DNA from: Psammoneis japonica
Lineage: Eukaryota
Assembly (NCBI GenBank): GCA_008632985.1
Contig: QPGO01000005.1
Location: forward strand, 765,607 to 829,606
Direction: 5' to 3'
Length of the DNA: 64,000 bases
Shown: positions 3,318-63,025 of the stretch, in pieces
Layout of the letters: every line of letters starts with the position of its first letter
Numbering within the stretch: the first letter of the stretch is position 1
The notes under the pieces: model-generated
What the model was told of the DNA's origin: nothing
What the model saw: the letters and a program-made list of their open reading frames with translations, nothing else
Database searches by the model: none
Made by a program: the position numbers and the translations under genes

Positions 3318-3611
3318 GAGACAACATGCTATCAAGCAAAATGAGTTGTGGAGCACCAAACAAGAGCGAGTGCTCAATCCAGAGGAAGGGCGAGCCATCC
3401 TTGGCGATTGCGGCACTCAAGCTTGGCGAACAACAACACAACGTGCGAGACGACGAGTTGAAAAGAGAGACAACACTCCATCAAGCAAAATGAGTTGTGG
3501 AGCACCAAACAAGAGCAGGCAATTAGAACCAGAGGAAGGGCGAGCCAACCTTGGGTGTCGCGGCATTCCGGCTTGGCGAACAACAAGCACATCGTGCGAG
3601 ACGACGAGTTG
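3318..3611. repeat. Two diverged tandem copies of a ~149-bp unit
   Basis: 'atcaagcaaaatgagttgtggagcaccaaacaagagc...ccagaggaagggcgagcca...gcttggcgaacaacaa...cgtgcgagacgacgagttg' starts at 3331 and again at 3480. Confidence 0.85.
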
Positions 3612-3654
3612 TGAGCGAAAATCGAGCGCAAAGAATTTCCGAGAGAGTTGTGTT

Positions 3655-3945
3655 TGCCAAGTGGCGCCAAGTAATAGTGTAAAGTAGCGTTGTAAAGTTG
3701 ACTGTTGCTTATGTTGTGAGAAGAAATGAAAGAGATTCGGCTACTCCGAAATCTCGTAGAATTAATACTAAGAAACCGCGTAGAAATATAAAGAAACAAT
3801 CTTTCGAGAGGCATCGAGATGTATCGAGAAAGGAGAAGAGGTTTCTAGAAAGTGTCATCGTTGACATCCTTTTGACACTTTTGACACCAGGCTGACATCC
3901 ACGAATGAATGTACGAATGAATGTAGATGACCGTGATACTCGGCA
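3655..3945 (-). repeat. 3' LTR of element 1
   Basis: tgccaagt...actcggca (imperfect terminal inverted repeat), direct repeat of 8264-8554. Retains most TpA sites. Confidence 0.96.
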
Positions 3946-3956
3946 CTCGCTTCCCC
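3946..3956 (-). other. Polypurine tract of element 1
   Basis: Minus strand reads GGGGAAGCGAG immediately before the 3' LTR. Confidence 0.85.
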
Positions 3957-3966
3957 AATTGAGACG

Positions 3967-6900
3967 TTAGAAGACAGGGTGAAGACGGCGGATGTTGATA
4001 CGTTCAGTGACGTGAGGCGAGCGCTGGATGGTAACGGTTCCATTGGCATGGACACGTACGATGCGGCAAGGACCATCTTTGGTGTTGAGTTTGCGTTGGA
4101 TGTCTTTGGTCACAACGAAGACTTGATCGCCGATGTTGCAGTCGCAAGCAAGACGTTTTGCGTTTTCGCGGAGATTGTTGCGTAGGACATCGCGCTTGCG
4201 ACGGGCATTGATCATTTTCCAGTTCGCAAGACAAGCAGCAGAAATGACCATGTCTCGACCGAAGACAATTTGTCCGGGAGACGACACAAGGGCAGCATGG
4301 CAGGTGCTGCGCAAGGCCCATGCAACAGATTGCAAAATTCCATGAATTGTGTCTTCGTCATGATCGCGAGAAGGGAGATCCATCGCACGGAGAGAATCGG
4401 CTATCACTTGATGAATGCGTTCAACGAACGCGTTGGCTTGAGGATTCTTGATTGTTGCAGGTTTCGGTTTAACACCACAACTGTAGAGGAGATCTGTAAA
4501 CTCGGAAGTGAATTCGGAACCATTGTCATAAATGACAATTTCTGGTCGCGGATGGCGACAAAACCACTCGCGATCGACGACAAGTGAAATGTCTTCGGAC
4601 GTTTTGGACTTGCAGTTCGCGAGTTCGACCCAACGGGTTGCGACATCAACAATTGAAACGGCTCTGATTTTGCGATCGACACCATTCTTGTCGGCACACG
4701 TCCAGGGACCGAAAAGATCGACTTGAGTTGCCTGCCAAGGTTCACAAGCAGTGTCTGGAAGAGGCAATTCGCCACAGTTTGCCGCAGCACGCTTGGATTT
4801 GGAACACGTGCGGCACTTGCGGACAAAAGTGCGGACTTTCGTCTGCATGTCGCGAGTGTAAAAATGTGAAGCCAAAGTTTGGCAGGTGCGATTGGCACCA
4901 GGATGGCAGAGAGTTTCATGGCACCACCGTAGAACTGCAGGAAAAAGCGTTGGAGGGAGGACAATCTTGTCCTTGTAAAGGACAATCTGTTTTCCGTTGA
5001 GTGGTTCAGCTGAGTGGGATTCGGACTTGTCGAGTCGTTGCTGAAGAGCAGAATCTTTTTTCTGATGGTCGGCGACAATGTCGAAAGTAACGGGGAATGT
5101 CGAAGGATCGATTTCCAACGAAGTCATTTCCTCGTAATCGCTTTGATCGACTTGGACAACAGGATGGCGACTCAAAAAATCAGCCACGACATTCTTGTGG
5201 CCTGGCAGGTGCTCGAAAGAGCAGCCGCACTCCTCGAGAAGCAAACGCCAGCGTTTGACGCGTTCTGACTTGAATTTGTCAAATGCAAGATTTTTGTGAT
5301 CGGTGAACAGGTAGCATCGATGACCAAAAAGGATGCTTTTGAAATTTTCGGTCGTTTCCACGAGCGACAGCAGCTCTTTTTCCATTGTCGTGTGGTTTCG
5401 TTGCGCTTGAGACAATTTTCGGCTGTAGAGCGCAATTGGCCATTCGCCATCATCAAATTCTTGAGCAATCACTGCACCAAGTTGACAATCACTCGCATCC
5501 GGATAGATCTTGAAAGGTTGAGAGAAGTCGGGGAATCGGTGGAGGATTTCGCGCGCCACAATTTTTTTCATCTGATTGAAAGCTTCCGTGTGGACGTCAG
5601 TCCACTTGAATTTGACTTTGTCTGATGACAGCGCAGTCAAGGGCGTAAGAGTGTGGCTGCGTCGGCACCACAATTTCTTGCAACAATTCACGAACCCGAT
5701 GAAACCACGTAATTGTCGATGGTTTTGAGGGCGAGCGAAGCGAAGCAAGGGTGGGATTTTCTTTTTCTGAGGCTGAACACCTTTTGCAGTCATGGTGTAG
5801 CCCAAGTAGTCGACGGTCTTGGCGGCGAGATGGGATTCTTCGACATGTGCGTGAAGATTGTTCGTGAGGAGCCGTTGCAAGACGAGTTCGAGTCGTTGAC
5901 AGTGATGGTTGAAGTCGTTCTTGGCAAAGAGGATGACATTGTCGATGCAGACTATGACATCTTCCATGTCATGAAAAATGTCTGTCATGCAAGCTTGAAA
6001 AATGTCGCTTGCCGGTTTGATTCCTTGCGGCAGGCGGTTGCAGCAACACTTGCCCCACGGCAGGATGATGCCGCAGAGTTTTTTCGACTCGTCGTCAAGC
6101 ACGAAGTGACAGCAGCCTCGGTTGAGGTCCAAACATGTCGCACAGGTAAAGCCGTTCATTTTCCATACGACGTCGTCGACAACAGGCAGTGGATGTGGAT
6201 GCCGTTCGAGACACTCGTTGAGTTTCCGTAAATCGGATAAGAAACGGATGCCACCGCTCTTCTTCGATCGGAAAAGACAGGGTGCACCCCAGGGAGAGTG
6301 AAGTTTGCGCGTGGTGACATCGATTTTTTCCAATTCATCCACTTCTTTGCGAGCCATGGGATGTGACGCTTGCGGAATGGTGCAAGCTTTCGCACAGCAT
6401 GGACGCGATCCTGGTTTCAGGGTCAAATGGACGGGTTTGCCGGGCACAGCTCCAAGTGCACCATCAAACAATTGTGGGTGTCGTCCGAAGAGTTTGATGA
6501 GTTGGTGCTGTTGATCGTCATCAAGGTGTTTGCAGCGTAGAACCATGTCGCGACAATTGTGTTTGTCGTGCGCATTGCTCGTCACACCTCGAACCTGACA
6601 GTTGACGGCATTCTGGAAGAACTTGGGCAATTCAGCATCGCCGGGATGAATCGCGTTAACTTCGACTTGGTCGAAAGAGCCCTTGGATCGCATGGATAGG
6701 GTGACATCGTCCCACGTGATTGTTTGATGCCGAAAATCAAAAACGAGTCCCATTTCTGTGGCGGTTTTTCTTCCGATGACAACATCGTGTTTTCCCACGG
6801 CTTTGTCTTCCACACAAGCATCAACGGAAACCTTCTTGGACGATGCGAAGTCTGGGAACTTAAACGTGAGTGTCGCAATCTCGTGCAGATTAACGGCACT

Positions 6901-8190
6901 GTAACGGCCTTTAACGGGAACGTCACATTTACGGATTTTGTGAGGAATCCCGTGAAGGGCTGAGCGCTTCACAAAATTGCGATTTGCGCCGGTGTCGAGT
7001 AAAGCAACACGGAACTTGTGCATTCCAGAATGAGTGTCAATCATCTGGACACGCGCTTCCGTGGTAAGATTGTCTTCTACTTCGGATTCGATGGAATCGT
7101 CTAGAAGAGACGTGACGTCTTCAAAAATGTCGTTGACATCATCTGACGCGATGCCATCGACATCGTTAGAAGCGGAGCGACCAGCTTTGGAGTCCACATC
7201 ATTGTTTTCGACGTTCCGTGTGCGGCTCCGTGTAGGATGGCGGTGTGTCGGCTCGTTTCGAGAGTTATTTTGTTGATTCGGCGCATTCCGATTTGCGCGG
7301 TTCCGCTCATAATTTTCACGTTCACGACGGATGACATTGCACTCTTGACCGTTCGGATGTACAACGCCATGGATTGGACATGTTTGTCCACGATTGTTTT
7401 GGTTCCTGTTCCTGGCATCGCGATTTTGGTCGTCATTCTGGCCGCGACGCGTATTTCGACCGTTGTTGCGTTGACTCCGATTGTTGTTGCGTCTGTTGTT
7501 GTCGGTGGACCCTTTGTCACCACGTTGTTCCATGCGTCGGAGAGTCTCGTAGCATTGAGCTTGGTCGTTCAAGTTTAAGTTGCGAAGACGGGCTTTAGTC
7601 TGAGTTTCGGCCCATGATCTTGGTCCACATTTTCGAAGGATCATGGACAATTCCGCTTCCGTGAATGACGGAACTCTTTCGGCGTCATCTTCGGATGGCG
7701 CAGGCATGATGTTAATCAACTTGTTAAAGCAACGGATGTCATTGACAAATGACTTGACAGTTTGGTTCCTGGGTTTCTTAAGGCTTTGAAGCCATTCCTT
7801 GGTGTCAAGGGCAATTTCTCCATCCATGCATTGGAGTAGAAATTCTTCACGACAAGTGTCGAATGTAACTTGGTCGCGGTTTTCGCATTCGTTTACAATG
7901 ATTTCCCAGTCGTCTTTTGGTGTTCCGGTCATAAGTCTGGTCACGAGCCGGAAACGTGGCTGTCCTTCAGCCGCACCGAGATCGTCGACAAGTTCATCGA
8001 AGTTTGACCAGAAGGTAAGAACATCTTCCGGTTCAGTTGAAGCTAACTTGCGCACCTCGATCGCAGTTTTAAGCCCATCTGGATCGTCAGGATCAATGGG
8101 GCTTTCAAAAGACACGAATTGGTCTTTGCGTTGCTCTTCCTCAGAGCGGTCAGGATGCTTAAGTTCGAATGGGCAGTTTTCTGCTGACAT
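3967..8190 (-). pseudogene. Gag-Pol polyprotein, open (1407 aa) but probably inactive
   Basis: Gag CPIH-x-H-x-C knuckle, protease LLDTGA, RT (PWGAP, DLRKLN, LDLNRGCCH, RLPQG, CIDN in place of YIDD), RNase H (DASD, FTDHKNL) and integrase (HHCC, DLFG, DNGSEF, VER). Conserved Tyr residues are replaced by Cys/His and a catalytic RT Asp is Asn. Confidence 0.93.
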
Positions 8191-8263
8191 GTCTGGTCAG
8201 GACAATGTGATCGGCAGATGTGTCTCAAGAGAGATGAACAAATGTTTGGGAGTGAATTTGCCA

Positions 8264-8554
8264 TGCCAAGTGGCGCCAAGTGACAGTGTAAAGCAGCGTT
8301 GTAAAGTTGACTGTTGCTGACATTGTGAGAAGAAATGAAAGAGATTCGGCTGCTCCGAAATCTCGCAGAATTAATGCTGAGAAACCGCGCAGAAATGTAA
8401 AGAAACAATCTTTCGAGAGGCATCGAGATGCATCGAGAAAGGAGAAGAGGTTTCTAGAAAGTGTCATCGTTGACATCCTTTTGACACTTTTGACACCAGG
8501 CTGACATCCACGAATGAACACACGAATGAATGTAGATGACCGTGACACTCGGCA
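8264..8554 (-). repeat. 5' LTR of element 1
   Basis: Direct repeat of 3655-3945. Followed on the minus strand by TGGCAAATTCAC, a PBS-like sequence starting TGG (tRNA not identified). Confidence 0.96.
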
Positions 8555-8806
8555 GTGTTGTGTCATGACCGTTGCTAAATTTCTCAATCACTGTCATTTT
8601 GTGTAACTTGGTGGAATTAACACCATGATTTCGTATGTAGAAGATTGGTGGGAACTCGGCACTTTCAAAATTGTTGCTGATTCCTTCGCACACTTTACGG
8701 CAACCATGCAAAACGCAAAAAAACTGCCGCCGAGCGACGGACGAGCTCCGGAATTTCGAAATTCTTCATCTTCCATTCTGCATCCTGATCCTCGCCGAAC
8801 GATGAG

Positions 8807-11800
8807 ATGAGCGAGTCATCAAATGACAACCACAACAACGAAGGGCTGGACCGCTGCACTCCTGTGATTGATTGTCAGCGTCAATTGTTTCTGTGTGACA
8901 AATCCACAACAAAAACAAGCAAGCGTGTGGTTCGCGGTGAGCACGCAAAAGGATCCGGCGGAGCAATCTGTCGTCACAGTTCTCACTTGGGTTGGAAGGG
9001 GAAAGAATTGAAAACGAAGACAAGAGCAGTGGCTGGTGCCGCATCAACAACGTCCTTGTTCCAGAAGCTCCGCGACGACGTCAGCCGTTCCTGGGAGACG
9101 CAAGGTCACCCGTCCAAGCAAGTGGTGGATTTGGTTGTGTCTGTTGCCAATTCTTCAACTTCTGCTGCAGCCCAAAAGGCATGCCACATGCCCTTGTTGA
9201 AGGACAAACATCCTCGCGCAACCCCCGTTCAGAGCCCCCCACAAAGAAATCTGTCAAGTGGTTCAAGTCTCGGCAGTGCCAATTCTCTCTGTTTCCTGCT
9301 GTCAGTTGATTTCCAAGTGATGGAAGCCTTGGCCAAAGTGCCAAGGATCTGCCTGGGAGTGAGTCAGATCATGCCTCACATCTGTTTCCCAGCACAGGCA
9401 CCAGGCATGAAGCCACACTGAACACCATGGTCGACATGTGCATGGGGCTGAATCTTGGTCGACTCGCGCATCATGAGAGCATCCACAAAACTCACCCCGA
9501 GATCGTAGAGACCTTCGAGTTTGTCAAAGACATTGACAACCTTGAAGAATTCTCTGTTGGAGGAGCAGATGAGGATGGCAATGCCACTTGTGTCATTGCT
9601 GTCATTGTGTGCAAGACTCCTTTCAAAGTGAGTGGTCAAAATGTGTTGGTGTCATTTGGGCTGGCCAAGTCCGCAGCTGCCAATGCAATTTTGGGTTTGC
9701 CTTTTCTTTGGGCCACCAACAGCACTCTTTTCATGCATTGTGAGTCTGAAGAAACTTTGTTGTGCCAAAGGTCAGGTCACACCTTCCCAGCACACTGTCA
9801 GGTCCCACATCGAGCGGACCAAGCACCCTTGACAGGCGGCATGGGGTCTCAAGCGGCTCATGCGTTGTCACCGTTGGATGCAACGTGGAAACCCATTTCC
9901 GATGCTGCAGAGCGCCCCCAAGCCGAAGTCAAGGTCTCCATGGCGCCAGAAGCTAAGCAGCAGCTCAACATCAACCAAGGATGCATTGTTTTCAATGATT
10001 TGTTGGAATTCTTCATGTCTGCCCAGTGTGAAGATCCTGGCATTCCAAACCCCGAACACAATTTCATTCCTAAAGTTGAACAAGACGAATGAGAGTTGCT
10101 TTCTAGCCCAACCTTGGAGTCATCATTTTGCTTGTCAAGTCCTTGTGTGAGCATTGTGCTGGCGTTTCAAGGTCTCTTGTGGCGTCAAGCCAGTCTATGT
10201 GCATTCTTGATCGACTCTGCAAGAACATGTTGCGAGCCCTCTGTGTCATCTGTGTCTTCTACATTCAAGCCTTTATTTCCATCTAAACCGTCTCCAAGTT
10301 TACAAGGTGCTGTTTGCACCTCAAAGAAAATTTGGTGCCCGAAGCTCCCGTCGCATCATGTCAAACCCGACAATTGTCCAGATCCATTAGATGGCATGGA
10401 GGTCATCTTTAAAGAACACGGCTGTTCCCCAAGGAAGTCAGTTGCAGCTCTTCAGCCTCGCGATGATGTGTCATCCAATGGAACCCCAAGCCATGTCAAG
10501 CCGAGTTCAATCAAAACATCCGGTGGTTGGACTGTCCCGAAATTCACAAGCCAAGAATCACAGAAACAATCCACAAGCATTGGGATGCATTCTGTGAGGA
10601 AGGGCTGCAAAAACATGTTCGTGGTTTCTCATGTCGAGTTGACACAGGAGATGTTGTCCCGACATCTTGCAAACCACCCCGTTGTGGTCCGCACAAATCC
10701 AAGATCATGATGAAGCCACTCGACCATCTCAAAAACAACGGTTTGATTTCTCGCAATGATGAAAGTCCTTGGGGAGCTCTCATTGTCCCAGCAGCAAAGC
10801 CTTGCCAAGAAACAACACCCTGGCACCAGCACATTTGGTGCCTCTGTGCATCTTGCCGTTGACTGAACCAAGTGACTCGACCTTTCAACTTTCCAATTCC
10901 TTGTTGCGATGATGCCACACAAGATGTCCCGCCACAGGCAAAACATTTTCTCAGCTTCAACCTTGACTGCGGGCATTGGCAAGTGCAGTTGAAAAAGGCT
11001 TCACAAGCTGAGACAGTGTTCTTCACACCAGAAGGCAAGAGTCATTGGAACGTCATGCCAGTGGGGATCCTCAATGCGCGTGCTGTCTTCATGGCAATGA
11101 TGGCAGCTCTTCGAAAAGAGTGGAACCATGCATTTTTCAGACAGCATCCCGACTCAGACGAGAATGACGTTGGCACTCATGTTGTGGTCTGACCATGTGG
11201 TTCTGAGGTCATCGTCGACGATGTCATGTGTCATGCCACCTTGACTGATTTGTTGTTTCAACATTTTGAAGAAGTCCTTCAAATTCTTCTTCATCATTGC
11301 ATCACCATAAAACTCAAGAAGTGCAAGTGGTTGTCTCCATTCATGGAATTTGTTGGGGTTGACGTCCACCGTGACGGAAATTCTCTGGCCCATTCTAAAT
11401 TGGATGCATTCTGCACTCTCCCACCACCCGAGACATGGGGAGACTTGTGCATGTTGATTGGCACCTTTGGTTTTTGTCAAAGTTGGATTGAACGGTTTGA
11501 GGCAAGATTGATTCCGTTCAGACGCCTTCAAGTCCAACAACCGCAACCAGATGCTGTGGATCTAGAAGCAGAACAAGCCTTCTTTGCCAGATTCTGGCTC
11601 CCCGAACATCAAGAATTGTTTGACCAGCTGAAGCAAGACATTTTGTCGGGTTTGGTTTTGGTGCGCCCGGGCTGCAACCGTCAGTTCTACGTTGAGACCA
11701 ACTGGAGCAAAGATGTTGTTGGAGCTGCCCTGCTTCAAGCTGATCCCAATGATCTCACAGCCAAAGAAGCTGAACTCACTGAAGTCCAGGGTGGTCCATG

Positions 11801-14302
11801 CTTTTTCGATTTGCAATGTTTCTCGACGTGTGGTCTCCCGGTGATGTCCCTGACCAAGAAGGCAACACGAAGTTCCTCACACACCTGGACTGCATCACTT
11901 CTTTTGCTGTGGCAGATTTTTTGTCTTCCACAGTCAATTCGGAGTCCGTCGGCCAAGTTGTCATGAGCAAGTTTTCATCGTGTGTGGCCTGTCATGGCTG
12001 ACTGTTGTCGATGCTGACTTGCTGTTTGCTGGAGTGTTCAAACGTCTGTTTCAACTGCTGCGAGTGCTGGTCAAACCCGTGTCACGCGAAAACCACCGTG
12101 CTGTCCGCAACGAGCATTTTCACTGCTGTCTCCACAAGACAGAGAGAATCAACTTGGCAGATGCAAGTCAGTTGACACTTTGGAAGCTCGGCGTTCTTTT
12201 CACTGTGTGTGCATGGAACGTGTCTCCTGTTGACACTGCTGACATCCCAAGGTTGCCAGCAGCTGTTGGACGTGAGTTTCCTTTTCCTTTGGACATTCAA
12301 GCTCAACCGATTCATGACTCAGCCTCAGTGCCACAACATGCTCTCAAGCATTTTGAATTGACTGCTCCATTGCTGTTCAAGCAGCATGAGTTGTTGAACA
12401 CATTGAATGATGAGCGGCGTCACAGGCACATTGAACTAAAAAATGAATGCCGAGCATGCCGCGAGTTCAATCCAGGAGATGTGGTGTGTGTACGAAAACA
12501 AGTCAAGTCGGACAAGTCACAAGACATCTCCGCCAAGCTGTCATTTTGCACTGAGGGTCCATGCAGAGTGCTTGAAAAGGTCTCCCCTGTTTCTTGCAAG
12601 ATGCAAAAGCTGCCCTTTGTCCAAGGATTGGGTCGCCCCAGACGGTTTCACAAAGAGAATGTCACGCGAATGATGCTGTTGCCATCCACAATGATTTTTC
12701 ATAAGACAGCTGACGGTGCTGACACTCGTTTTTTGCATTTCCACTCTGAGATGGCCGGTTCTCCTTTAGAAAAGTGGCTGGGAAATGTCCCACGCGGTGG
12801 CTGCTCCAAGGCCGATGCAGGAGAAGACTTTGCATTTGAACCTTTGCAAAGCATTTGGTCCGACAAGCCTCCAGTTGAAACCAATTCCTCGGGTTCAGAC
12901 TCTCAAAATCAAGCCCAAGAGTTGGAGACAGTTGACGACCCAGACAGTGACTCAGACGAGGAAGGCTCTGCAACCAACGCAGCGCCTCTCCCTGCTCTGG
13001 TCCCCGGCACAGTTCATCCAAGAACCAAGCAGTTTTTTGCCAAGTTGCACAAGTCCATGTCCAACTCGACTGCCAAGATGTTTTTTGTTGCCTGTCATCC
13101 CCAAGCTCAAGTGACTCCCATGCTCGGCACAGGCACAAGCAGATTGGCCCGAGTCCAATCATTGTCACGCTGCTGCTCAAGGTGTGTGTGACGTGCGTTG
13201 GTGGGTGCAGCAGCACTCAGATCAGAGTTCAAGGTCGTCAGTTAACAGCAGGTTCTGGCTGGACGTTCACAAGATCTGCACCAATGGTCGAGACCCAGAG
13301 CCTTTCCCAGTTAGACCTCAGAAAGTGGATGAAATTTTAGCAGCAAATGACACTCTCGTTTGGCCATCTGCCCCTTTCCCTTTGGCTGAGCATTTCGTGG
13401 TGGGACCATTTGATTTGTGCAAGGCGCATGTGGGACTTCAAGTCCCAAAGCGTCAGGCAGTCTCTGAAGCCTGCCACATTGACAATGTTCATTGGACGAG
13501 GCTCGAACAAGAAGCCCCAAAATTTTGACTCGACGCATCGCATGTTCGACACACCCCGGATTTGTTGCCGGATCGGCAAATGCATTCAGTGCATTGCATT
13601 CATTTTCTTTTCAGTCCAACATTTTGCACTCCATTCCAAGTGTCAGTTTAGGCACTTTGTATCCAGTCTATGACCAAGGAGTTATCGGCTCAGGAGTTGA
13701 TGCCCCAAGTTCGAGCTCTGACAGCTGGAATTGTCTGCCAGGCGTGAGACGAGAGTTTGACTCATCCAAGCCATCGCGGGACTCTAGATCCCTTGCACAC
13801 TGGTTTGATTCCGACGCCATATGAGGGCTAGTGGAAAACGGTTGCAAGGATCCGGTGCTCTGTACAACGTAGCGTGGATGTGTCTGGTGTGGGGGTGTGC
13901 GGTGAGTGCGACGCCCTTCGAATGCGCGAAGTTTCAGACTCCATGCGTTGTGGAACCCTGAGGCATCTGATGTGGCTCTGCTAGTTATGACAGAGGTGAA
14001 GACCATGTGACAGGATAGCCCTAAAAAATTTTCTTGTCAAGAACATGGGAGGACGCAATCTGTCCTCTAACTTTTGTGCTGTGAGAGCCTGCTCTTTGGA
14101 AAGGGGGGTGTCGACAGCGTCCGTCAGTAGTCCGTGAGGACATGCGAAGCGAACTGAGTCGAGTTGATCGTGGATACGACGACGTGACACTCATCGTGTT
14201 CTCGCACAATCACAATCACTCGACATCAGTCTGGTGACAATCTTCCTTGTGTGCGGTACTACTCGTTTTCTTTATAACACAACGTTGTGGTTTTGACTGA
14301 CA
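8807..14302 (+). mobile_element. Older degenerate Ty3/Gypsy-like retrotransposon (different family)
   Basis: Frameshifted pol fragments: RT ('PWGALIV', 'LNQVTRPFNFPIP', 'NLDCGHWQV', 'WNVMPVG', 'VIVDDV'), RNase H ('FYVETNWSKDVVGAALLQA') and an integrase-like ORF at 11980-13191. PPT-like GGAAAGGGGGG at 14098-14108 precedes a putative TGTC...GACA LTR at 14109-14302. No matching 5' LTR was found and the left boundary is uncertain. Confidence 0.8.
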
Positions 14303-19226: not shown

Positions 19227-19593
19227 TGCACTATGCTCGAAGAACGAGTGTAAACGAAAGTAGAATAGTGTGCGAAAAGTGGAAATTATAAGATTAAATT
19301 TTGCTCTGTGATTTTTGGTTTCTCCGAACGAGTTCTCAATGGCCTAAAGCTTCTGTACTGCTTCTACAGACAAAAGGCCTTTCGGAGAATATATTCGTGA
19401 CAACAGATTGTCCGGATACGATTGCTATTGACACGTAAGATGTCAACATCGTCAATCGATCGTATTTGCAATTCTCGACATCCGATCAACTCTGTGTGAT
19501 CGTTCTGTCCTTTGTACGCATCCACGACTGTGGTACGATTGACATATAAATAATATATAATCATAAATATGTATATAACAGTCGCATACTGCA
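19227..19593 (-). repeat. 3' LTR of element 2 (TpA intact)
   Basis: Direct repeat of 22463-22829, about 30 TpA sites. Confidence 0.96.
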
Positions 19594-22462
19594 TTCGCCT
19601 CCCTAATTGCACATTAGAGTCATTTGTTAAGTGGATTATTCGACGGATATTGACAGTGTCAATAATGTCTCCACGTTCACTGTATTGTGCCATTAGTAAT
19701 GACTGTTGTCGTTTTGTATAGGCCATGTGGGGCCGTTCCAATTTCCGAATGTCTTATGAGAGTGACATCGTTTGTTTCTCACTTTATATATATGTATATA
19801 TAGTATTACGTCGAGTATTCTCGTTGACGTTCTTTGTTGATATGAACACAAGGACCAATTGTCCTGCAGTGTTTTTCATGATATCGATTGTACATAGCAT
19901 TTTGCCCAGTACTCGATGTACGCCCTTAATTGGCGTTCACTTACTCTTACTTGTGGATTTCGTGTAGTTTGGCGGGCTTACTTCATATGCCATATTGCTC
20001 TGCTGCACTACCACGTTTCTTAAGTAGTAATTAACGATGGTCAAGGATATGACCATTTCGTCTTGATATATTCAATCCTGTGATGGTTATGAATTCCATT
20101 ATGGATTTTTGTGTACTTCAACCATCTATCAGTTGGATTTTAATCGTTATTTGGACGTTTCTTTTTGACATACCGGTGTTATTTTGTCATTCCGAAGGCA
20201 CTGCTTTCGTGCACTATGGGGATAATGTCCATTTTTGTGTTTTGTTTCTGAATCTTTGGCACATCTCGTGTGACGTTATTTTGTCTTGCCTCGTACATCG
20301 TACATTACAATCGTACGGGTGCTGTGAGATTGTCTTTTTTGCCAATGTGAAGTAGGTACGTATAATGTACGTATACCAATCTGTCACAGATTTTTTTTCT
20401 TAACCGTCTTTAAATAAGGCGATTTTTTCTTTATGACATGAGCATTTTTGATCTCGCTCGCCTCCACGAAAAGTGTTCGTATGATATGTCGCGTCCGACA
20501 ATTTGGAGGGAATGTCTTTATCCCGTTTTAACGGTAGGACATTGTCGTAGGATTCAATTTTCTATAGTAAGTCGGCTGATCGCGTCTATCGCGACGATGT
20601 TCGCCTTGCCCTCGTTGTATTCTAATTCGGGACTGAAGTTGTCAACGTATGACTTTGTCCGTTGTGTCTTATGATCAGTATATGTATAAATCTGTTGGCC
20701 AAACAGTATATTTCGGAATTTTATAAGTGTTTTCACTATGGACAGAAGTTCTTTTTTCCGTTGTAACGTATAATATTGAAATACGTGTATGATAACAATA
20801 TAGTTTTTGATTTGATACGCTCCATATTTTCGGAGACTTTTCGTTCCGTACTTGTACTTTTGCCGTTTGACCTTTATTGAGGTGAATTTGGCTAGTATTG
20901 TACAGGAGATCGTTGAGACTACATGTCTCGATAATAGTAACGTATGACAACGAGATGTCGTAGTGTTCTTTACGTTTTTCTCGTGTTGCGATTGCTTGAA
21001 TCGCCTCCATTTTCTTTGCAATCGATTGCATATCGTTACGCATGGAAGTCTTGATAGTTTATTTCAAGTTAAACAGTGAAGGACTTTTGTTGTTAACCTT
21101 CTAAGCAACTGTTCTAGTCGTTTGAATGCCGTATTAAGCTGTACTTGTACAGGTGATATTTTGAAGTTACTTTTGTCAGGCACAAACGATCACATGTGGT
21201 CGTTCTGACAACTTCAAACCTGTTATGAGTTCACTCAAGTGTTGTATAAAAATATCTGGGGCTCTATAGATTCTCATTGGAAGTCCATAGTGCTCATTTT
21301 CTCCCCACGGCATGATTTTCGTGTGAGCACGACGTGTGCTTTTTTTATTTGACATGGTGGCATTCCATGTTTGAATCAAATAGATTACATATATGAAACG
21401 TTCTTGCTTCAATAGTATTTCCTGAACATTGGGTAAAGGACACACCACCTGTATGAACCTCATGCTAAGCTTCTGAGTGTCGGACACGGTCGAACTCGAC
21501 CTGTTTTCTTTAGACAATGAGTCTCAGAGCGACTTGTTCAGAGCAACTTCATTCTTAAGACTTCAATCTTTCATAATAGGTCAAACTCCTTTTGATTGGA
21601 CGCCTCCAAAGACTATGATAGGGGAAGGTTCTCACGCGTCGTGGAATCGCGTCAGATTTTCCACGATGAGATCCACTGATGCTTCCCATGCATTCGTCTG
21701 AGGAACTTTTCAAAACGATTTCAACCTCTTAAGAAGAAGATTGAGTTGGTTGTGTTCATTTGGGTTAGATGCATCGCCGTAGTTGTCACTTGATTAAGAT
21801 CGATGGCGTGATGATGTGAGTCGAGGACCATTGGTTCCGTCATTAACTCTATTCACGGCGTCACATTTTTCAATGTGATCGGTTTTCAGCTTGAAAACAT
21901 CGGCATCGAAGAGTGTATGAACATTCTTCATAAGGTAATTGCTTCTTCCCATTAGATTTCTTCATTTGCGTAGTCCAACATGACTTGCAGGACTGGACAT
22001 TAAGTCGCGTCCCATGATCGTGTCATTTGAACCTGAAGAAAATTTGGTGTTTTCAACATGCACTGTTTGCATGTCAGCATGCCTTAAATTTCGCATGGTG
22101 AGAACTGAATTCGGTGTTTGCTGTCAGTCGTAAAGAGCTCACCCTTGGTTTCCCAAGTTTTTGGTGGCGGATTCTTGTGTTCTCAACTTTCGCACGAATT
22201 TGCGCAAAATTGTGGTTGACGATGTTCCGTTGTCGATAGGAACACGTAGATGCTTTTTTTTTTTTGCTTTTCTCAGAGAAGTGATCATGTGGACAGCGAG
22301 AGTGGGACTCGCATAACATGCTGTGATGCTTTTTATGGGTTTCCAGACATCCTGCAACGCGTCATGCTCCTTGAGCGGCACAAATTTTTGATCGGACTCG
22401 ATTGGGTCAATTTTTTTAAATTGACAGTTTTGTTCGTTAAGCGTTTTAGAGTCTTGACACAA

Positions 22463-22829
22463 TGCACTGTGCTCGAAGAACGAGTGCAAACAAAAGTAGA
22501 ACAGTGTGCGAAAAGTGGAAATTATGAGATTAAATTTTGCTCTGTGATTTTTGGTTTCTCCGAACGAGTTCTCAATGGCCTGAAGCTTCTGCACTGCTTC
22601 TACAGACAAAAGGCCTTTCGGAGAATGTGTTCGTGACAACAGATTGTCCGGGTGCGATTGCCATTGACACGTAAGATGTCAACATCGTCAATCGATCGTA
22701 TTTGCAATTCTCGACATCCGATCAACTCTGTGTGATCGTTCTGTCCTTTGCACGCATCCACGACTGTGGTGCGATTGACATGCAAATAACACACAATCAC
22801 AAATGTGCATGTGACAGTCGCATGCTGCA
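22463..22829 (-). repeat. 5' LTR of element 2 (TpA converted)
   Basis: Direct repeat of 19227-19593, only about 7 TpA sites left. Confidence 0.96.
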
Positions 22830-22833
22830 AGCC

Positions 22834-31370: not shown

Positions 31371-31630
31371 CACACCAACCGTCGGCGGCGGGATCTTGAG
31401 ATGACCGGTGACGACTCGTGGAGAGATTGCTTGGGGGTTTCAATGCAATTATGTGTTTAAAAAGCAGTGCTTTAGATTATTAACGTAGCTCTTAATGATG
31501 GTGATCTCTTGTCTATATATTCTTTTGATGATGTGGTGTAATAGTGTCTTCTTTTTAGCATCGCGGCCGATGATTCACCACACTAGCTACTTGCACCACG
31601 TCTGATTTTTCACCTCGGATGTATGGCGAC

Positions 31631-34600
31631 GGACGGACAGTGCGACCAATTTTTCCGAATCTCCATGGTCCATTGTCAGCAAAGAACAAATGGCAGTTGC
31701 AACATTTGCTTTTTAAAAACAACAATGCAAAGAGACAAAATGCAGAGGACATTGCAGGCAAAGATGGTGGATTGCATGTGGCAAGAGATGAGATGAAGGA
31801 ATGAGGAACAGCAAATGTTAAAAAGGGTTGAGATTGAAATTGTGGGCAAGAACATTCACATTTCAAAGCAGGGCATGATTTAGAATCAAGAAGCTTGTAA
31901 ACTCAGTTGGCTTTGAACTGACATTTAAAGGAAGGAAGACCTGGCTCACAAGTTCACAATGATCTGGAGCTGCAATCAAGAAATGCCCACATTGTGGCAG
32001 GTGGTCAGACCCAGATTGTTGGCATCCCAGATGAAAGAAAGCAGCAGAAGAAAAGGGAGAGATGTCCTTGAGCGCAGCTTGCAATTGAGGCAACTGTTCA
32101 AGAAGGCATTTGTCTGGATGGACACAGCACAGAGCATGCACAACTTGAGCTCCATTTGCATTGTTCAGCACCTGTGCTTGGTTTGCATTTGGCCCATCAC
32201 TTCTTGCTGGTTGTGGCTTGGCAACAACAGAAACCAGCAGCAAACAAGAGAGATGCAGACCAAAAATCTCTGTGGAGGACGGGGCATTGATTTCTCTAAA
32301 TTTTCAAAGTGTGGTTGTCTGGCCAACCAGAAAGACAGTTCTGGCTGGGCACAATGCTCAAGAACATGAAAGCCAGAGCTGAGCAAGTTGGGTGCACTTA
32401 AAACATGCAATGTGAGCTGTGCTTTTGTGTGACAATGAACGAGCAATTGCACACAGGGCTGGGCTGGGATTTGACCTTGAGAAACTGCCTGCCCAAGAGG
32501 CACCAAGCCAGCGGGAAGCCACGCATGATTTGGGGAAGAGGGTTGACAATGCAAAGATTTTCTGACCACAATGGAACAAATGATCAAAGATGTGCCAGCC
32601 CATCTGACATCCAAAGAAGACACGACAACAACTCAGCTGCTGGGGGGGGCATCTGGCTGCTGCAGAGCATGAAACAGAAGAACAACAATGGCTGACAGAG
32701 TGCACCATGTGTGCCTGTGTCATGTTGCATGTGTGGCAGAATTTGATTGACCAGGTGCTCCACATTGGACAAGGAGTGAAGCCATGTTGTGGGCACTGGT
32801 TGAAGAGAACATCCTCTCAAAACAGCACTTTGACAAGACATCACCATGACAGTGGTCATCAACTGGCATGGTGACAGGCTGCTGCCTGACAACAAAAGTG
32901 GGAACAATGCTCCTGAAAAAATGTCAGTTTTTTTCAACCAACAAAGAAGCCATGCAGCCATCACTTGGCAACACCACCTGTGCCAATGACAGTGCACTCA
33001 AAAGCACTGCAAACTTGAGGCAAGGAGAGATGAGGTGCAATTTTCAAGAACTCTGTGCAAGTGCTTGACTCTGGCTGGGCAGAGTTGCAAGAGTCTTTGT
33101 GGAGCACAGCACACCTTTTCTGATTTTAGTCCCATGTTTGCATTTTTTGGGATGGTGACACAAGCACCACTTTGTTCAAACTGCATTTTTTAAGACATTG
33201 GTCCAACTCATGGGGTTGACAAGCAAAAATTCTTGTTCTTGGGGCTTCCATGTGATGCTGACTTGTTGGAAAGCCATCACCAAGCATCTGTTTGGTGGCA
33301 CATTTTTGATCTTGATGTGTGCCTTTCCATTGTCAGCCAAACTTGGCATTGAATCCTGGTGAGAGACAAACACGCAGCAGCAGCAGCAGCAAATGCAACT
33401 TGCCTCTCTGATGAAGTGTGAAAGTGCACCAAGTCTTGATGACAGCCACTCGAAGAGTGCTGGCTGAGATTTTTGTGGCTGTTTTTTTGCCAGTGTGGAA
33501 GATCTGAGCAAGCCAAGTTGGCCAAAGAAAAAAATGGCATTGACCTGTGTTGGTGCTGGGTCTGCTGAAAAGGGCAGAACATGTTGCTCTGTCTTCTGCT
33601 CCTTGTCAGCAAGTGCTTGTTGGTGTTTTGTGAGCCTTTTGAATGTGAGCCAAGGCATGCACACAAAGGCTCCTCATTGGTGGTTGCTGCAGTGCCAAAG
33701 GTTGCACAACAACAGACAGATGTCAGAAGATGACAAGTCATGCATCAAAATCACCACCAAACACCACACATGCGACCATGCATGAAACACCTGTCTGGCC
33801 ATCTCTCTGCAAGTTTCCACAGTTTGCACCCCCCCTCCCCAGCAGCAGCCTTGTTCATTGCCATGATGGAGCATGTTTTTGTGAAGGACCAGATGATTGT
33901 GGACATTTTCACCAAGCTGTTTGCAAATGATCAGTTTGCCAAAGTGTGTGTTGAGGAAATGTCATGGCCCACCTTGCTTGGGTTCAAGAGATCAAGAGAG
34001 TGCCAAGCACATGCATCTTGCCCTCTCCTCCTGGTGCCTTCTTCTCCACCCTCTTTGGCTCAAAACTTGAAGCAAGTCAAATCATGGCAAGCTGAAGAGC
34101 ACAAGGTTCCTGTTGGCAACTTTGCTTCTCTTCATTTCTCTTGTTTGCTTTCACCACAATCTCCAAACTGTGGCACACATTGCTCCACTGTGCTGCTCTT
34201 TTTCACCTGGCTGATGGCCTTTGTCATCTCCCTTGGGCTTTTGCGCATTTTTGCAAAAGCAAGTGTGCATGCCATTGTTTGCCTCTGCAAGCAAATGTCC
34301 ACTGCATGAGCTTGCACACATCCTGCACTTCTCCTGCCACCAGCATTGCAGCATTCTTGGTTGAGATTTTAGAGCGAAGTGTTGGGTGTTGCTGAGAGGA
34401 GAGCTGAAAATTGCAGCTTGTCATGTGCAGCAGAAGCACTGGTGAGCATTGGCTGCTTTTCAACTAGAGTGGCAACCCTTCCTGTTCTTCCAAGCATTGT
34501 CACTGCTCAGCTTTCAAAGCAACGATTGTGAGCACTGTCATTGTGGCTGTCCCACATGAGCTTGCAAAGCACCAGGCAAAACACAAATTGTGTTTTGTGA

Positions 34601-37600
34601 GAGAGAAGATGAGATGCACAACCAGCTGCCTTTAGAGCATGGAAGCAAGGAAGACAGCAATGACCTTGTTCCATCGACTTCCAATGCATTGGATGGGGTG
34701 GTGCAGCTCCAGATGATCAGAGCTTGAAGCAAGCATTGCTGGGCTGACAGCTGACATCCCAGAGGTTGTGTTGCTGTTGATGTTGTCAAGTGACTCAAAT
34801 GCAATGTGTCAGAGACAGAGTGCAGTGAACAGCTCAACATTTTGGGAATGCCTCTGCTGCATTGTGGTTTGAAAATTGCACTTTTTTGGCTTTCCTGCCA
34901 CCTTTCCTCCTGGCTTCACCTTGACACATGTTGTGTCAGAGTGCAAACCTCAGTCCTGAGCATCACTCAGAGGAAGCTCAGAACTTTGCACTCTTGGGCC
35001 ATTTGGCAGCGCAGCACTCCACAAGATGCTTTGGGTTGGCTGTGCTCTTTGTGGTCTGCAGAGTGGTGGTGCAATCTCAACAGGAGGAGCTGTCATGAGT
35101 GGGTCATGAGCAGAGTGTTTGTGACTTGTCTTGGGAGCACTGAGTGCCAAGCTTGTGTGGACAATGCTGTTTTTGGAGCAGCCCACCAGACACGCTTTTC
35201 CCAGACATCAACATGGTGGGACAACAGCTGTGCTTTCAAGTGACAGCAAGCCTTTGGAGCAAGGCTGTTGCTGCAGTCAAGTTGGTGCATTGAATTTGTT
35301 GAGTGTGCTGGCAACATTGTCCTTGAAGCAGCAACTTTCTCGCTGCTCTCCATCTGGGTTTGATGCATCTTGTCACAGCCATGTGAAAATTCTTGCTTTG
35401 AGTCCTTCTTCTTCTGCCACAATGACTGCAGTGTCCAAACACCAGCGGAGCTTGTCATGTGCGCACAAAGCATTGCCCCTTCATTGTGCCTGCTCTGCAT
35501 TTCAAGGATGAACAAGTGCGAATGGAGGGAACGTCAAAACAAGATTGTGTTTGTCAAATCCTCCTTGTCACTTTCACATGCCAGCTTGCCCAATCTGACA
35601 ACATGGTGTGGGAATGCCAGGTTGTTGAAAGGCCGCCAGATGGCCACCCCAGCCCTGCCAGTGAATTGCCAGAATGTGCACCAAGAACATTGGAGCCACA
35701 CTCTCCTTGTGTTCTGACTCCACATTTTCATTTTTTTGCAGCACATTTCCAATTTTCCATGCTGACATCAAAGCAAAGAGGGGTTGGTCCATTGACCTGC
35801 ATGGGCCTTGAGCAGAGTTTTCAAATCCTTGTCTCTTTTTCATGCTGGCTTGCACAATCTGATGATGCAGCACAGGAACACCCAGTTGTTGAAATGCCAC
35901 CAGAGGGCCAACCCCAGCCCTGCCAGCAAATTGCCAGATGCAATGGATTGCACACCAATGGTGTTCTTGGAGCTGTTGTCATTTGTGGTTGGACTCCATG
36001 ATCATGTCATTTTTCTGCTCAGCACATTTCCAATTTCCCCATCCAACATCAAAGTCGGGGGTTGGCCCATTGACCTCCATGGATCTTGAGCAGATGCAAG
36101 CTGAGTCTCATGCTGTCAACATCCCAGCCATGCCTTGCACACATTTTGTTCCAAAGAACACAAGTTGTGGGGCAGAACCAGCTTTTGCTTGAACCTTCTT
36201 GGCATGTGAACAAAGACTTGCTGCAGTGCAGCTTCAAGCCAGGTGATCTGCATTTCCATGATGTGAGAAACAAAGATGAAAGCAAGGTCAGCAAACAAAC
36301 CTTGGCAAGTCTTTGGTGTGAAGAAAAGCTTGCTGACATGCCTGGAGTTGGAATCAAAAAATGCTCCCATGCATTTGTGAGTTCCTGCTGGTGCACAAAA
36401 CAACAAGCAGCTGTGAGTCTCTGGTGGCAGCTCATGATCCTTGCAGATCTTTGCATGACAAGACCAGCCAGTGGCTTGAAGGAGCCCAGGGAAGTGTCTC
36501 AATGGAACAGGGTTGACTTGTTTTCCCCTCTTTTTCTCAACTGAAATGAGAGGGGCAACGTCCTCCTCTGCTGCTGGACTGTTGTCAGCAGCCACATCTA
36601 GAACATCCAGAGCATCAGGCTCCTCAGCTGCAGCTCCAAAAATTGCTTCCTCTTTTTCATGCACAGCCATTGCAGGATTGTTCATGGCATCAGCACAACA
36701 GGCTCAGCTGTGGGTTTGTCCACTGCAGCAGCAGGAACACCCGCCTCCATGCATCAACTGGTGCACTTTGCTCTTCCACAGCAAGCTCATTCAAGGCACC
36801 CCAAGGCTCTTCAATGTCATTGTTGGCTTCAGGAACTGCTTCCTCCACAGCAATTGGGTTGTTGTCCATGGCCTGAGCCAGCTCAACGGCCATTGCAGTT
36901 CACACCCAGCCGCCCCAGTGATCAAACTGAGGACCCGAGTCTCAGCAAACAGTGCTTTCTTCTTGCCCCAATTCAAATTCAAGCAGCACCACAGCCAACA
37001 ATTCATGATCATTTAAAAAGAGCATCACACGGGTGTGACAAGGGATTTGAGGAAAGAGCAGGTGTGCTGGTTGGAGTCGGAGCAGCATCGCCAATTGTGC
37101 AAGAAACAACAGCATCCACGGCAACGCAAATTTCACAGGAATGCTGTTGAAGCAGGGGAGCCAGTGCATGGTCCATGGAACCTCACAAACTTTAAGAGCA
37201 GCTGCAGCAGCATCACATGCTTGATTGTCAATGTCCGCAGCTCCTCAGCGGCACAAGAAACAACAAACATTGGCGCCAATCAACTTCAGTGAGGAGCACA
37301 TGAATGTCACATGTCACAGCATGCAAAGCACCAAGAAGGAAAACTTTTACAGACCACATGGACAAAGGTCACAAGAGCATGAATCATGTGGCGAGTCTTG
37401 GTCTTCACAGCAATGTGCACGCACCGCTGTGGGTCGCTGCTTCCCAAAGGAAGCCACGCTCATGATGCGGCTGTGGTTCTGCTTGCCATGAAACAGGCAC
37501 AGCAGGAGATTCACAAAGAGTGTGATTGGTGCAAAGTGTGCAACCATGATGGGGGTAACAGCATGAGCAAAGACAGATTGGCGACAGCGTGTGTTTCAAC

Positions 37601-61664: not shown

Positions 61665-62079
61665 GATGTTGTTATGAGGTTAAGTTTGAACGGTACGGGC
61701 AGAGGTGAAGGTGGTTGTGAGAGCCTCTTGGTTGGGAAGATAACGGCGGCAAAATCTTGTGAGTTGTGGTGTCACCAATCGCGCAACAGCTGTGAAAGAA
61801 GCGTCCGTTCTACACAGATTCTGGTATTACCTCTTGCTATGTGCAAAGAAGATGCCAGATGTTATGTACGGGCGGTGCGTTGGATTTCTTACTTTTTACA
61901 CAGCCCGTTGGTACAACTTGTACAGCGGAATCTTTTGAGGGTCATTTTGCTGTCGTAATGAAGAATGCGCAAATGGTTAGGTTACACAACGGCAGAAGTT
62001 GACAAACGAAAAGGCTCCACGTGGAGTGAACAAAACGCAAGAAGCGACAGTTCTACAGTAGTTGGGGGGTCGATCCAAC

Positions 62080-63025
62080 TCACTCTCTCCATTAGAGAGG
62101 GTGGTGGCTGGCAGAGAGACCATCCTCAGGTTCAAGTTTTGCTCCTTTGTGTTGGCAAAGATGAGTGTCGCTCTCACAACGTTCCTCCTTCACATCCCCA
62201 GTGCAAGCCAGAGTTTTGTGGCACCCCCAGGAGCAGAAGTGCGCTCTTGTCTCAAGGCCATGCTGGCTTGTCGATTGTCAGAAAGAAGCCCTTTTTGTTC
62301 TTCATTTCTTTCTTGCTTTGGCTTTAAACAGATGAAAAATGATGTGAGATCCACTTTGTGCAATGATGGCTCCAGTGTGGCTGGAAGTTGTGTGGGAGAT
62401 CTTTTGTGGCAAAAGCCCCCCCTCAATCTGGGCTCAAACAAAAAAGAGCCCAAATCTCTGGCTTGGTCATGGCAGTGGCATTGTTTGCAAACAGATCGTC
62501 AATCTGCTTTGTTTGCTTCATTGCAGCAGCACCAGTTGAAGAAAGTGCATGGAAAAGACTGCGTTTGCAGTTGAAAGCAGACAACTCGCGCAAGCCACCG
62601 CATCAGTGCGGCACATTTTCAGCACAACTTCTGTCAGGTTGCTCAACATTTGTGCTGCTTTGGCCCAACTGGGGTTTCAACACTTTGTGTCATCATTCTC
62701 ACTTTGCTCCCAACACCTTTGACATGGTCACCGAGTGCTCTTTTTGCGGCTTGTGTGTCATGTCTTTGCTTTGGAGAAAAGCAGTTGATGCAACTCACTG
62801 CATTGGCCTGGATCTGTTCTCAACAACCCCAGGTCTTCCGACATTGCTTCCATCTGAATGCAGACAAAGCAGCTCTTCAGCAAACATGACATGACACAAG
62901 AAGCAGCGGTGCTCCTTCTTGCAGACTTGTTGCAGTGGGAGAAGCTTTTCCTGCACTCAACCAGAGCAATGTTGCTCTCTGTGTTCCCATGAAGCACTGC
63001 AAGGAATCTTGTGATTAAAATTTGA
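62080..63025. mobile_element. Unclassified TpA-depleted repeat relic
   Basis: Abrupt loss of TpA from about 62100, no intact ORF. Confidence 0.45.

Follow-up and report, generated by a model that had tools for sequence, protein, structure and literature searches.

Probable TpA-directed hypermutation of an integrated Ty3/gypsy-type retrotransposon that leaves its Gag-Pol frame open

How can a retrotransposon lose most of its tyrosines and still present an uninterrupted Gag-Pol frame? This question is raised by a 64,000-nucleotide stretch of Psammoneis japonica contig QPGO01000005.1 (positions 765,607 to 829,606), here called the window, in which the minus strand of positions 3967..8190 encodes a Gag-Pol protein of 1407 amino acids (aa) that is poor in tyrosine and rich in cysteine and histidine. 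We refer to the retrotransposon carrying this open reading frame (ORF) as element 1. A first-pass annotation of the same DNA had proposed that changes of TA to TG or CA inactivated the element without creating stop codons. Here, we compared element 1 with its homologues, its two long terminal repeats (LTRs) with each other, and its base composition with that of the rest of the window. The evidence makes it very probable that a recently inserted Ty3/gypsy-type element was hypermutated from TpA to TpG or CpA at the DNA level, after integration.

Results

Element 1 is structurally complete

The Gag-Pol ORF starts with a methionine at 8190 and ends with TAA at 3969-3967; from stop to stop, it spans 3967..8196 of the minus strand (1409 aa). 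It contains no frameshift relative to its homologues, and the methionine at 8190 lines up with the N terminus of the relatives (MSAE...). Pfam domains occur in the Ty3/gypsy arrangement, RVT_1, RT_RNaseH/RT_RNaseH_2, Integrase_H2C2 and rve. The reverse transcriptase domain RVT_1 covers residues 645-801 (5794..6264), the RNase H domain covers residues 865-989 (5230..5604; RT_RNaseH, 890-989), and the zinc-binding and catalytic core parts of the integrase (4441..4956) correspond to Integrase_H2C2 at 1081-1136 and rve at 1156-1252, all on the minus strand. No protease or Gag family matched the ORF in the Pfam scan at E <= 0.01; the relatives align across the entire N-terminal part of the ORF, and a few distant relatives carry protease families. 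The named relatives, from Cyclotella cryptica and Thalassiosira exigua, are 35-38% identical.

Two LTRs of 291 nucleotides (nt) with TG..CA ends flank the ORF in the minus orientation. The 5' LTR (8264..8554) is heavily mutated, and the 3' LTR (3655..3945) is almost spared. Directly inside the 5' LTR lies TGG, the start of a putative primer-binding site, and a purine tract (3946-3956) adjoins the inner side of the 3' LTR. The 5-bp target-site duplication GTGTT is identical at both ends (3650..3654 and 8555-8559). These features identify element 1 as a Ty3/gypsy-type LTR retrotransposon that is structurally complete and lies on the minus strand.

One sample (runs X1-X3) matches the window, and its contigs, which give neither rates nor strands, connect about position 3620 straight to about 8558 in run X1. 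The runs listed for the window include no RNA run. Element 1 was therefore inserted in an older repeat, other copies of which are without it. On the left, the 3' LTR adjoins two tandem 145-bp units that are 86% alike (3318-3611). The summed contig depth of this flank (about 4600) marks it as a high-copy repeat, and its ratio of observed to expected TA (TA obs/exp) is about 0.4.

Conserved tyrosines have become cysteine or histidine

The ORF contains 13 tyrosines in 1409 residues (0.92%), in agreement with the first-pass annotation, which had given about 13 for an open 1407-aa Gag-Pol, together with 53 cysteines and 53 histidines (3.76% each). The 120 homologues listed contain 2.75-4.54% tyrosine (mean, 3.75%) and at most 2.46% cysteine. 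Tyrosine is retained among the 240 homologues listed, with a single outlier at 1.19%. At the 17 columns where tyrosine is conserved in 60 homologues, element 1 has tyrosine at 3, cysteine at 9 and histidine at 5, whereas it retains 294 of the 409 other conserved columns (Fisher p = 9e-6). Against the ten closest relatives (44-50% identical to the element 1 protein), the 41 tyrosine columns read C 22, H 8, Y 7, F 2, N 1 and R 1. Like the Ty3/gypsy elements of diatoms, element 1 encodes reverse transcriptase, RNase H and integrase, in this order, within a single Gag-Pol ORF whose length of about 1400 aa is shared by relatives that are 52-55% identical; unlike them, it has lost 30 of 41 clade-conserved tyrosines to cysteine or histidine, that of the polymerase box included. 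The invariant tyrosines of both polymerase and integrase are gone, and the element 1 protein is probably inactive.

The individual motifs bear out the replacement of tyrosine by cysteine and histidine that had been claimed. Where the relatives read GYYH, WGxYxYARLP, VNYY, DASxY, QRNYT and EEYxY, element 1 reads GCCH, WGKCCCNRLP, VNCC, DASDC, QRNHT and EECGC, respectively. Active relatives are without cysteine and histidine at these columns, so that the condition named in the first-pass annotation as refuting its reading does not hold. The polymerase active-site box reads CIDN (5938-5949, minus strand) and had been read as a change from YIDD. The Y>C part of that reading stood, but the D>N part did not, because the asparagine is native to the ten closest relatives.

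All ten of these relatives, many of which have intact 1400-aa ORFs on transcript-sized contigs, read YIDN, with N753 invariant, and more distant relatives have YIDD in the polymerase box. Judging from these sequences, there may be a clade of apparently active YIDN elements that lacks the second aspartate of the box. In addition, the conserved tyrosine column at residue 1339 (4180-4182, minus strand) reads arginine (CGC), with both TA letters changed. This arginine, together with the high CG content of the ORF, may reflect a weak side activity at CpA/TpG or a CG-rich ancestor.

Element 1 differs from the ten closest relatives at 176 of 692 conserved columns, and 47 of these differences are explained by a single TA>TG or TA>CA step from the consensus residue. 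Tyrosine was changed to cysteine in 18 of them and to histidine in 7; the others include I>V (8), T>A (6), I>M (3), V>A (1) and L>P (1). The same test explained 0 of 62 differences in one intact relative (L009) and 0 of 28 in another (L001), the latter being a lenient control, as it is identical to one of the ten closest relatives. Changes at xTA codons, which had also been predicted, are present but few (the I>M, V>A and L>P cases), and A>G across the codon boundary (I>V and T>A) is commoner.

The protein signature is matched in the DNA. TA obs/exp is 0.22 in the element 1 ORF (CG obs/exp, 1.23) and ranges from 0.43 to 1.08 in 79 related metagenome loci. The ORF contains 13.7 TA per kb, compared to a mean of 54.7 in 25 intact relatives (loci with an ORF of at least 1000 aa). 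Element 1 would therefore have lost about three-quarters of its TA pairs, some 160-175 sites, as estimated from the relatives rather than counted. The other copies point in the same direction. Among the 963 contigs of run X1 that match the window, 231 of 250 variant places are transitions, and at 20 of the 40 variant places listed (of 260) the other copy has TA and the window has TG or CA. These contigs comprise many diverged copies, indicating that the element 1 family is multi-copy.

LTR pairs place the changes after integration

The two LTRs of an element are identical at insertion, so that their differences date the changes. The LTRs of element 1 differ at 17 of 291 nt. Sixteen of these differences are transitions at inferred TA sites, and the remaining one, a T/G difference, likewise removes a TA. 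All other positions are the same, and none of the 15 CpGs differs (TA versus other positions, Fisher p = 3e-14). The losses are one-sided: 15 of 21 TA sites are lost in the 5' LTR, where 6 TA are left and 15 CpGs are intact, and only 2 of 21 in the 3' LTR, which keeps 19 (p = 9e-5). Since 15 of 21 TA sites of the 5' LTR changed, versus at most 1 of the 249 other positions of the pair, the rate of change at TA, expressed as an indirect ratio, is hundreds-fold, at least two orders of magnitude, above ordinary mutation.

A second LTR element on the minus strand (element 2; 19227..22829) gave the same result. Its 367-nt LTRs (19227-19593 and 22463-22829) have TG..CA ends, and the element is flanked by a 4-bp duplication, AGCC. 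The LTRs differ at 25 of 367 nt. Twenty-four of these differences are transitions, and 23 have TA on the left and either TG (12) or CA (11) on the right; 1 of 21 CpGs differs. The right (5') LTR has lost 23 of 30 TA sites and the left LTR 0 of 30 (p = 2e-10). On the sense strand, TG and CA products stand at 9:5 in pair 1 and 11:12 in pair 2, indicating that both strands were affected about equally. Both target duplications are intact and pair 1 is without non-TA differences, so that element 1 looks young by the clock of ordinary mutation.

The changes thus occurred after integration, at the DNA level and on both strands, and they are essentially confined to TpA. That initially identical LTRs met unequal fates speaks for targeting by position rather than by homology. 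We also considered a model of transcription from the element's own promoter, but it fails, since mutations occur in U3 of the 5' LTR, which is not transcribed, and the 3' LTR, although transcribed, is spared.

The bases flanking TpA determine its survival

Compared with the host region, the 141 TA that survive in the depleted blocks of the window (described below) are enriched 5.3-fold in TTAA and 2.8-fold in CTAA, while ATAC and GTAC are at 0.27-fold and ATAT is absent. TA survival in the element 1 ORF relative to intact relatives follows the same order (ATAT, 0; ATAC, 0.05; CTAG, 0.11; GTAC, 0.13; TTAA, 0.84). All 13 remaining tyrosine codons of element 1 have a pyrimidine before them. None of the 9 tyrosine columns that come after a purine kept tyrosine, compared to 7 of the 29 that follow a pyrimidine and hold cysteine, histidine or tyrosine in element 1. 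We modeled each TA site as two events, A>G on either strand, favored if the base after the A is a pyrimidine. Among the tyrosine columns and LTR sites with a single favored route, 29 of 37 changed as predicted (p = 7.5e-4).

The context rule is a strict T before the A and, after it, T > C > G >> A, so that RTAY is favored and TTAA is almost immune. Tyrosine codons (TAY) are hit most readily and TAA least. That Y>C (22) outnumbers Y>H (8) had at one point suggested a transcription-linked strand bias; this idea was dropped, as the LTR counts are balanced and the 3'-pyrimidine context of tyrosine codons explains the excess.

Read from the sequence, the same rule can equally be stated as a T with a purine before it, and this brings in a different target. 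The thymine of RTA could have been oxidized or modified in another way, for example by a TET/JBP-type reaction to 5-hydroxymethyluracil or a later product, which would then be taken for C in replication or replaced by C in repair, with the same outcome in the genome. Because TpA is palindromic, all patterns described here fit a T with a 5' purine equally well, and hydroxylation of thymine at TpA is known from some protists. Yet we know of no natural T modification that gives a clean, near-exclusive T>C. TadA/ADAT enzymes act on A34 of tRNA after the invariant U33, which fits the strict 5' T. Furthermore, deamination of adenine to inosine yields A>G directly, and the main text of a preprint on the chlorarachniophyte Bigelowiella natans (10.64898/2026.01.13.699255) names a TadA/ADAT2-like candidate. 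We therefore consider a thymine target unlikely.

TpA loss keeps reading frames open

The claim that TA>TG/CA makes no new in-frame stop holds, for the one possible source of an in-frame TGA is TAA, itself a stop codon, and TAG is turned into TGG or CAG. We simulated 164-169 random TA>TG/CA events (75% of sites) on the intact ORFs of two relatives, and 300 of 300 ORFs remained open, compared to 7-8 of 300 with an equal number of random transitions. Changes in the opposite direction (CA/TG>TA), like those of repeat-induced point mutation (RIP), left 0 of 300 open.

The same effect is seen across the window. Per kb of strand, the depleted blocks contain 2.2-4.1 TAA plus TAG codons, down from 17.5, and 22-29.5 stops of all kinds, down from 36. 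They have 36-41 ORFs of at least 100 aa per 10 kb versus 23 elsewhere, and ORFs in the heavily degraded blocks are lengthened only about 1.7-fold. The 77 ORFs of at least 100 aa in the repeat blocks contain 0.04% Tyr, 5.9% Cys and 4.7% His, and 72 of them are without Tyr; the 55 ORFs of the host region contain 2.8% Tyr, 2.9% Cys and 3.1% His. The dense spurious Cys/His-rich ORFs noted in the first-pass annotation are therefore real in composition, but the rise in their density, although genuine, is moderate. Loss of CpG creates TGA stops, and ORF length is therefore limited in old blocks.

One spurious Cys/His-rich ORF (29360-29899, minus strand) gave a match to the YABBY N-terminal zinc finger below the Pfam threshold (E 2.6e-5; 24.1 bits, with a cutoff of 28.6). 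Spurious frames of this kind can mimic zinc-finger proteins.

Depleted blocks coincide with repeats, and CpG loss follows

TA and CG profiles were computed over the window in steps of 500 bp and 200 bp. Against a background TA obs/exp of about 0.6, values are about 0.4-0.9 in the gene region (38-62 kb) and drop to 0.0-0.3 where transposons and satellites lie. Every depleted block consists of repeats or of the remains of transposons, and the edges of the depleted domains are either sharp or graded.

The first domain (3946..13700; TA obs/exp about 0.0-0.3) includes element 1 and, beyond it, an older retroelement remnant with a Pfam match to RT_RNaseH_2 (11193-11963, plus strand). CpG is normal in element 1 (to 8554) and about 0.5 in the remnant. 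Further along, a stretch at 18500-19200 is also depleted, and an old block at about 22300-29800 is nearly without TA and CG (obs/exp 0.0-0.15). This block includes a 187-bp satellite (23110-25443; fragments at 18503-19226 and 22830-25443) within which element 2 is inserted. A second old block nearly without TA and CG (31600..37400) is full of Tyr-free ORFs, and a last depleted block (62000..64000; CpG about 0.3-0.45) contains a degraded RVT_1 (E 5.7e-6, below the Pfam cutoff).

In element 2, TA loss fades across about 1.5 kb from the 5' LTR inward. The interior of this element measures just 2.9 kb and gives a weak RNase H match. Its left LTR adjoins TA-free satellite, yet retains 30 of 30 TA.

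CpG loss forms a second layer. All 24 of the 500-bp windows with CG obs/exp below 0.3 fall within the 48 with TA below 0.3. Nine TA-poor windows have normal CpG, eight of them in the young element 1. As the CG-poor windows are nested in the TA-poor ones, CpG loss is later than TA loss and affects the same domains. Most simply, it would be the decay of methylated CpG in silenced DNA. The old blocks resemble such DNA in their CG obs/exp of about 0.03-0.2 with an excess of TG/CA; they differ in that CpG decay is here a slower second layer, and the TA loss is beyond its reach.

That depleted blocks are all repeats and that the family is multi-copy would also be expected if mutation were triggered by homology, duplicated sequences being recognized by pairing as in RIP but with the opposite chemistry; the B. 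natans preprint, in its main text, likens the process there to RIP (10.64898/2026.01.13.699255). On the other hand, identical LTRs lying 4.6 and 3.2 kb apart carry the unequal loads of 15/21 versus 2/21 and 23/30 versus 0/30, respectively, and the tandem repeats at 30.2-31.4 kb are TA-rich. The main hypermutable region of B. natans is, moreover, reported as single copy (10.64898/2026.01.13.699255). These observations make a homology trigger quite improbable.

Outside the depleted blocks, the window contains long, nearly uninterrupted ORFs with Pfam domains (758, 446, 435, 355, 338 and 303 aa). The best homologue of the 758-aa host ORF is 51% identical, and the Atlas places this ORF among bacterial clusters. 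Two adjacent ORFs at 16620-18163 (minus strand) with helicase-associated repeats (HA, PF03457) have normal TA, and the Atlas clusters nearest to the HA-domain ORF are labelled Bacillariophyta, which we take as a lead only. Rfam gave no match across the window.

The signature occurs in other sequences

Tyrosine-poor relatives are rare. We found none among the 120 near-length homologues listed, one weak case among the 120 shorter ones listed (P0203), one clear case among the 150 best representatives drawn from a library of 1.84 billion proteins (P0420), and one partial case among the 79 loci (L059).

P0420, a fragment of 606 aa from a Logan assembly that covers RNase H and integrase, is 32% identical to element 1 and has zero Tyr, 4.1% Cys and 5.3% His. 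It keeps tyrosine at 0 of 11 conserved columns (His 5, Cys 3). Its further changes include L>P/S, V>A, I>T/V and T>A, as well as the R>H/C/Q/W changes typical of CpG decay, and it is still open. It lies outside both element families of the window (tblastn, 31.5%). P0420 thus provides one direct example, in a public collection, of the contamination of protein databases anticipated in the first-pass annotation. L059 (868-3663), a metagenome Ty3/gypsy relative, has a TA obs/exp of 0.43 and Cys or His at 6 of 14 conserved Tyr columns. The process may have acted here in a milder form, in a different organism.

Discussion

Editing before integration and other origins of the pattern

ADAR-like A-to-I editing of the retrotransposon RNA, fixed by reverse transcription, would also produce A>G changes. 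According to the Discussion of the B. natans preprint (10.64898/2026.01.13.699255), ADAR favors a U before the edited A. In animals, retroelement RNA is a known ADAR substrate. But the two LTRs share one template and nevertheless differ at 15 and 23 TA sites, the sense strand shows T>C and A>G in similar numbers, and depletion is even stronger in satellites and old remnants, which involve no reverse transcription. The context does not fit either: the 5' T is near absolute, and the favored 3' base is T, not G. ADARs are animal enzymes and prefer a 3' G. This origin is very unlikely.

It is likewise hardly credible that TpA is intact and merely modified in silent chromatin, so that a long-read base-caller reports it as TG or CA. 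Nanopore base-calling does err at modified motifs, and only 41% of the 31-mers sampled from 3600-8600 are present in run X1. Miscalls in a two-strand consensus would not, however, split between TG and CA at neighboring sites while being complete over 15 kb. In addition, 236 of the 963 run X1 contigs are at least 99% alike to the window, the independent P0420 (Logan) and the metagenome contig L059 carry the same signature, and the B. natans mutations were called from Illumina reads, as stated in the main text of that preprint (10.64898/2026.01.13.699255).

Finally, a native composition, in which the family avoids TA (for nuclease escape or RNA stability) and its protein works with Cys and His, is practically negligible: TA is indeed under-represented in most genomes and stands at about 0.6 in the background here, but TA obs/exp is at least 0.43 in 79 of 79 related loci, the homologues listed keep Tyr, invariant polymerase and integrase tyrosines are lost, the two LTRs of one insertion differ, and noncoding satellites are depleted too.

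Proposed mechanism

We thus favor hypermutation of TpA after integration. In this process, A:T to G:C transitions would have occurred at TpA on either strand, most likely by deamination of a T-preceded adenine to inosine, which would be read as G. A deaminase of the TadA/ADAT2 type that is guided to foreign or silenced DNA could be responsible, as proposed for B. natans in the preprint's main text. Its target would be a chromosomal domain rather than the element as a unit. This domain includes all of the interior, along with the 5' LTR and, on the right, the older repeat, and hypermutation ends at the inner edge of the 3' LTR. The frame would remain open while Tyr (TAY) is converted to Cys or His and Ile or Thr after a T to Val or Ala, and ORF-based tools would score element 1 as intact. 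Much later, CpG would be lost in the same domains.

Several points weigh against this interpretation or limit it. What we describe is a fossil pattern, and the enzyme, its targeting signal and any ongoing mutation are hypothetical. As TpA is self-complementary, A deamination (TAY) and T modification (RTA) predict the same pattern. The LTRs alone date events, and some interior changes could predate integration. The ORF has 75 CG per kb, compared to a mean of 48 in the relatives, and its gains in TG and CA fall short of matching the TA loss under the relatives' baseline, which is therefore an indirect one. A TA-rich island of 32-116-bp tandem units at 29.9-31.5 kb (29880-31500; TA obs/exp 1.1-1.6, CG about 0.5, GC 53-55%) has kept its TA although depleted blocks lie on either side, and most of the interior of element 2 was spared as well, so that neither repeat status nor nearness is sufficient. 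Spreading rests on two cases. In each, it was the 5' LTR that was mutated, and this LTR is also next to the larger depleted block; element polarity and spreading from the neighbor are therefore inseparable. The minus strand of the TA-rich island reads as a Pro/Thr/Ser/Ala-rich repeat protein.

Comparison with known systems

Of 302 new point mutations in the mutation-accumulation lines of B. natans, 231 were located in an integrated giant virus and a virophage. A>G or T>C accounted for 230 of the 231, in every case at TpA, and the rate was about 1000-fold that of the background. Hypermutation appeared in some lines only. TpA-poor coding sequences were enriched for reverse transcriptase, endonuclease-reverse transcriptase, DDE and a zinc-finger motif, and an ADAT2-like adenine deaminase was proposed (all from the main text of 10.64898/2026.01.13.699255). 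That text, supplements aside, does not mention stop codons, tyrosine, cysteine, CpG, LTRs, flanks, trinucleotides or context. In the literature covered, which excluded subscription journals and the preprint's supplements, TpA>TpG/CpA hypermutation appears in this preprint only, and not in diatoms.

The two cases are alike in that transitions are nearly all at TpA, are regional to foreign or selfish DNA, spare host genes and far exceed the background rate, and in B. natans, too, as far as the main text goes, predicted genes that are TpA-poor and rich in CpA and TpG are enriched for reverse transcriptase. They are unlike in their targets, which here are LTR retrotransposons and satellites, and in their evidence, which here consists of fossil LTR pairs and not of de novo mutations. 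Furthermore, the host of the window looks intron-poor, whereas B. natans genes are intron-rich, and the named relatives of element 1 are from diatoms, so that the host is probably a diatom and probably not of the B. natans lineage. To the B. natans case, our analysis adds dating by LTR pairs, positional targeting, a flanking-base rule, the CpG layer and the consequence for proteins.

RIP of ascomycete fungi is similar in that transitions strike a specific dinucleotide in large numbers and on both strands, transposons are inactivated where they sit, and long stretches of skewed composition result. However, RIP converts CpA/TpG to TpA, with a fall in GC and numerous new stops, while here TpA is lost, GC rises and no stops arise. 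RIP is also homology-dependent and mutates both copies, in contrast to the LTR pairs of the window, in each of which one LTR is almost untouched. Fossils of animal editing (APOBEC G>A and ADAR A>G) share the clustered, deaminase-type transitions fixed in genomic retroelements, but they arise before integration, on complementary DNA or RNA, and on one strand; here, the changes are post-integration, affect both strands and extend to repeats that are not retroelements.

A broader interpretation, which we advance tentatively and rate at slightly less than an even chance, is that the window would record a TpA-specific DNA-editing defense, a chemical mirror image of RIP, in a second lineage of algae, outside the chlorarachniophytes and probably within the diatoms. 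Such a defense would be aimed by position, start at or beside the 5' LTR of newly inserted retrotransposons, prefer RTAY, spare TTAA and act before CpG decay, and it would yield Tyr-less, Cys/His-rich "zombie" frames, some of them zinc-finger-like, in genomes and protein sets.

Implications

Where an open frame is taken to indicate an intact element, annotation and surveys of transposon activity will be wrong in such genomes. Tyr-free, Cys/His-rich proteins may also inflate counts of "zinc fingers"; both the zinc-finger motif among the TpA-poor genes of the preprint's main text and the subthreshold YABBY match point to this. LTR pairs offer a cheap screen for any long-read assembly, with no need for mutation-accumulation lines, and the context rule narrows the search for the enzyme. 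Overall, these data provide independent support, from sequence only, for a process that the literature covered reports for one species only, and they hint that it may be widespread among marine protists.

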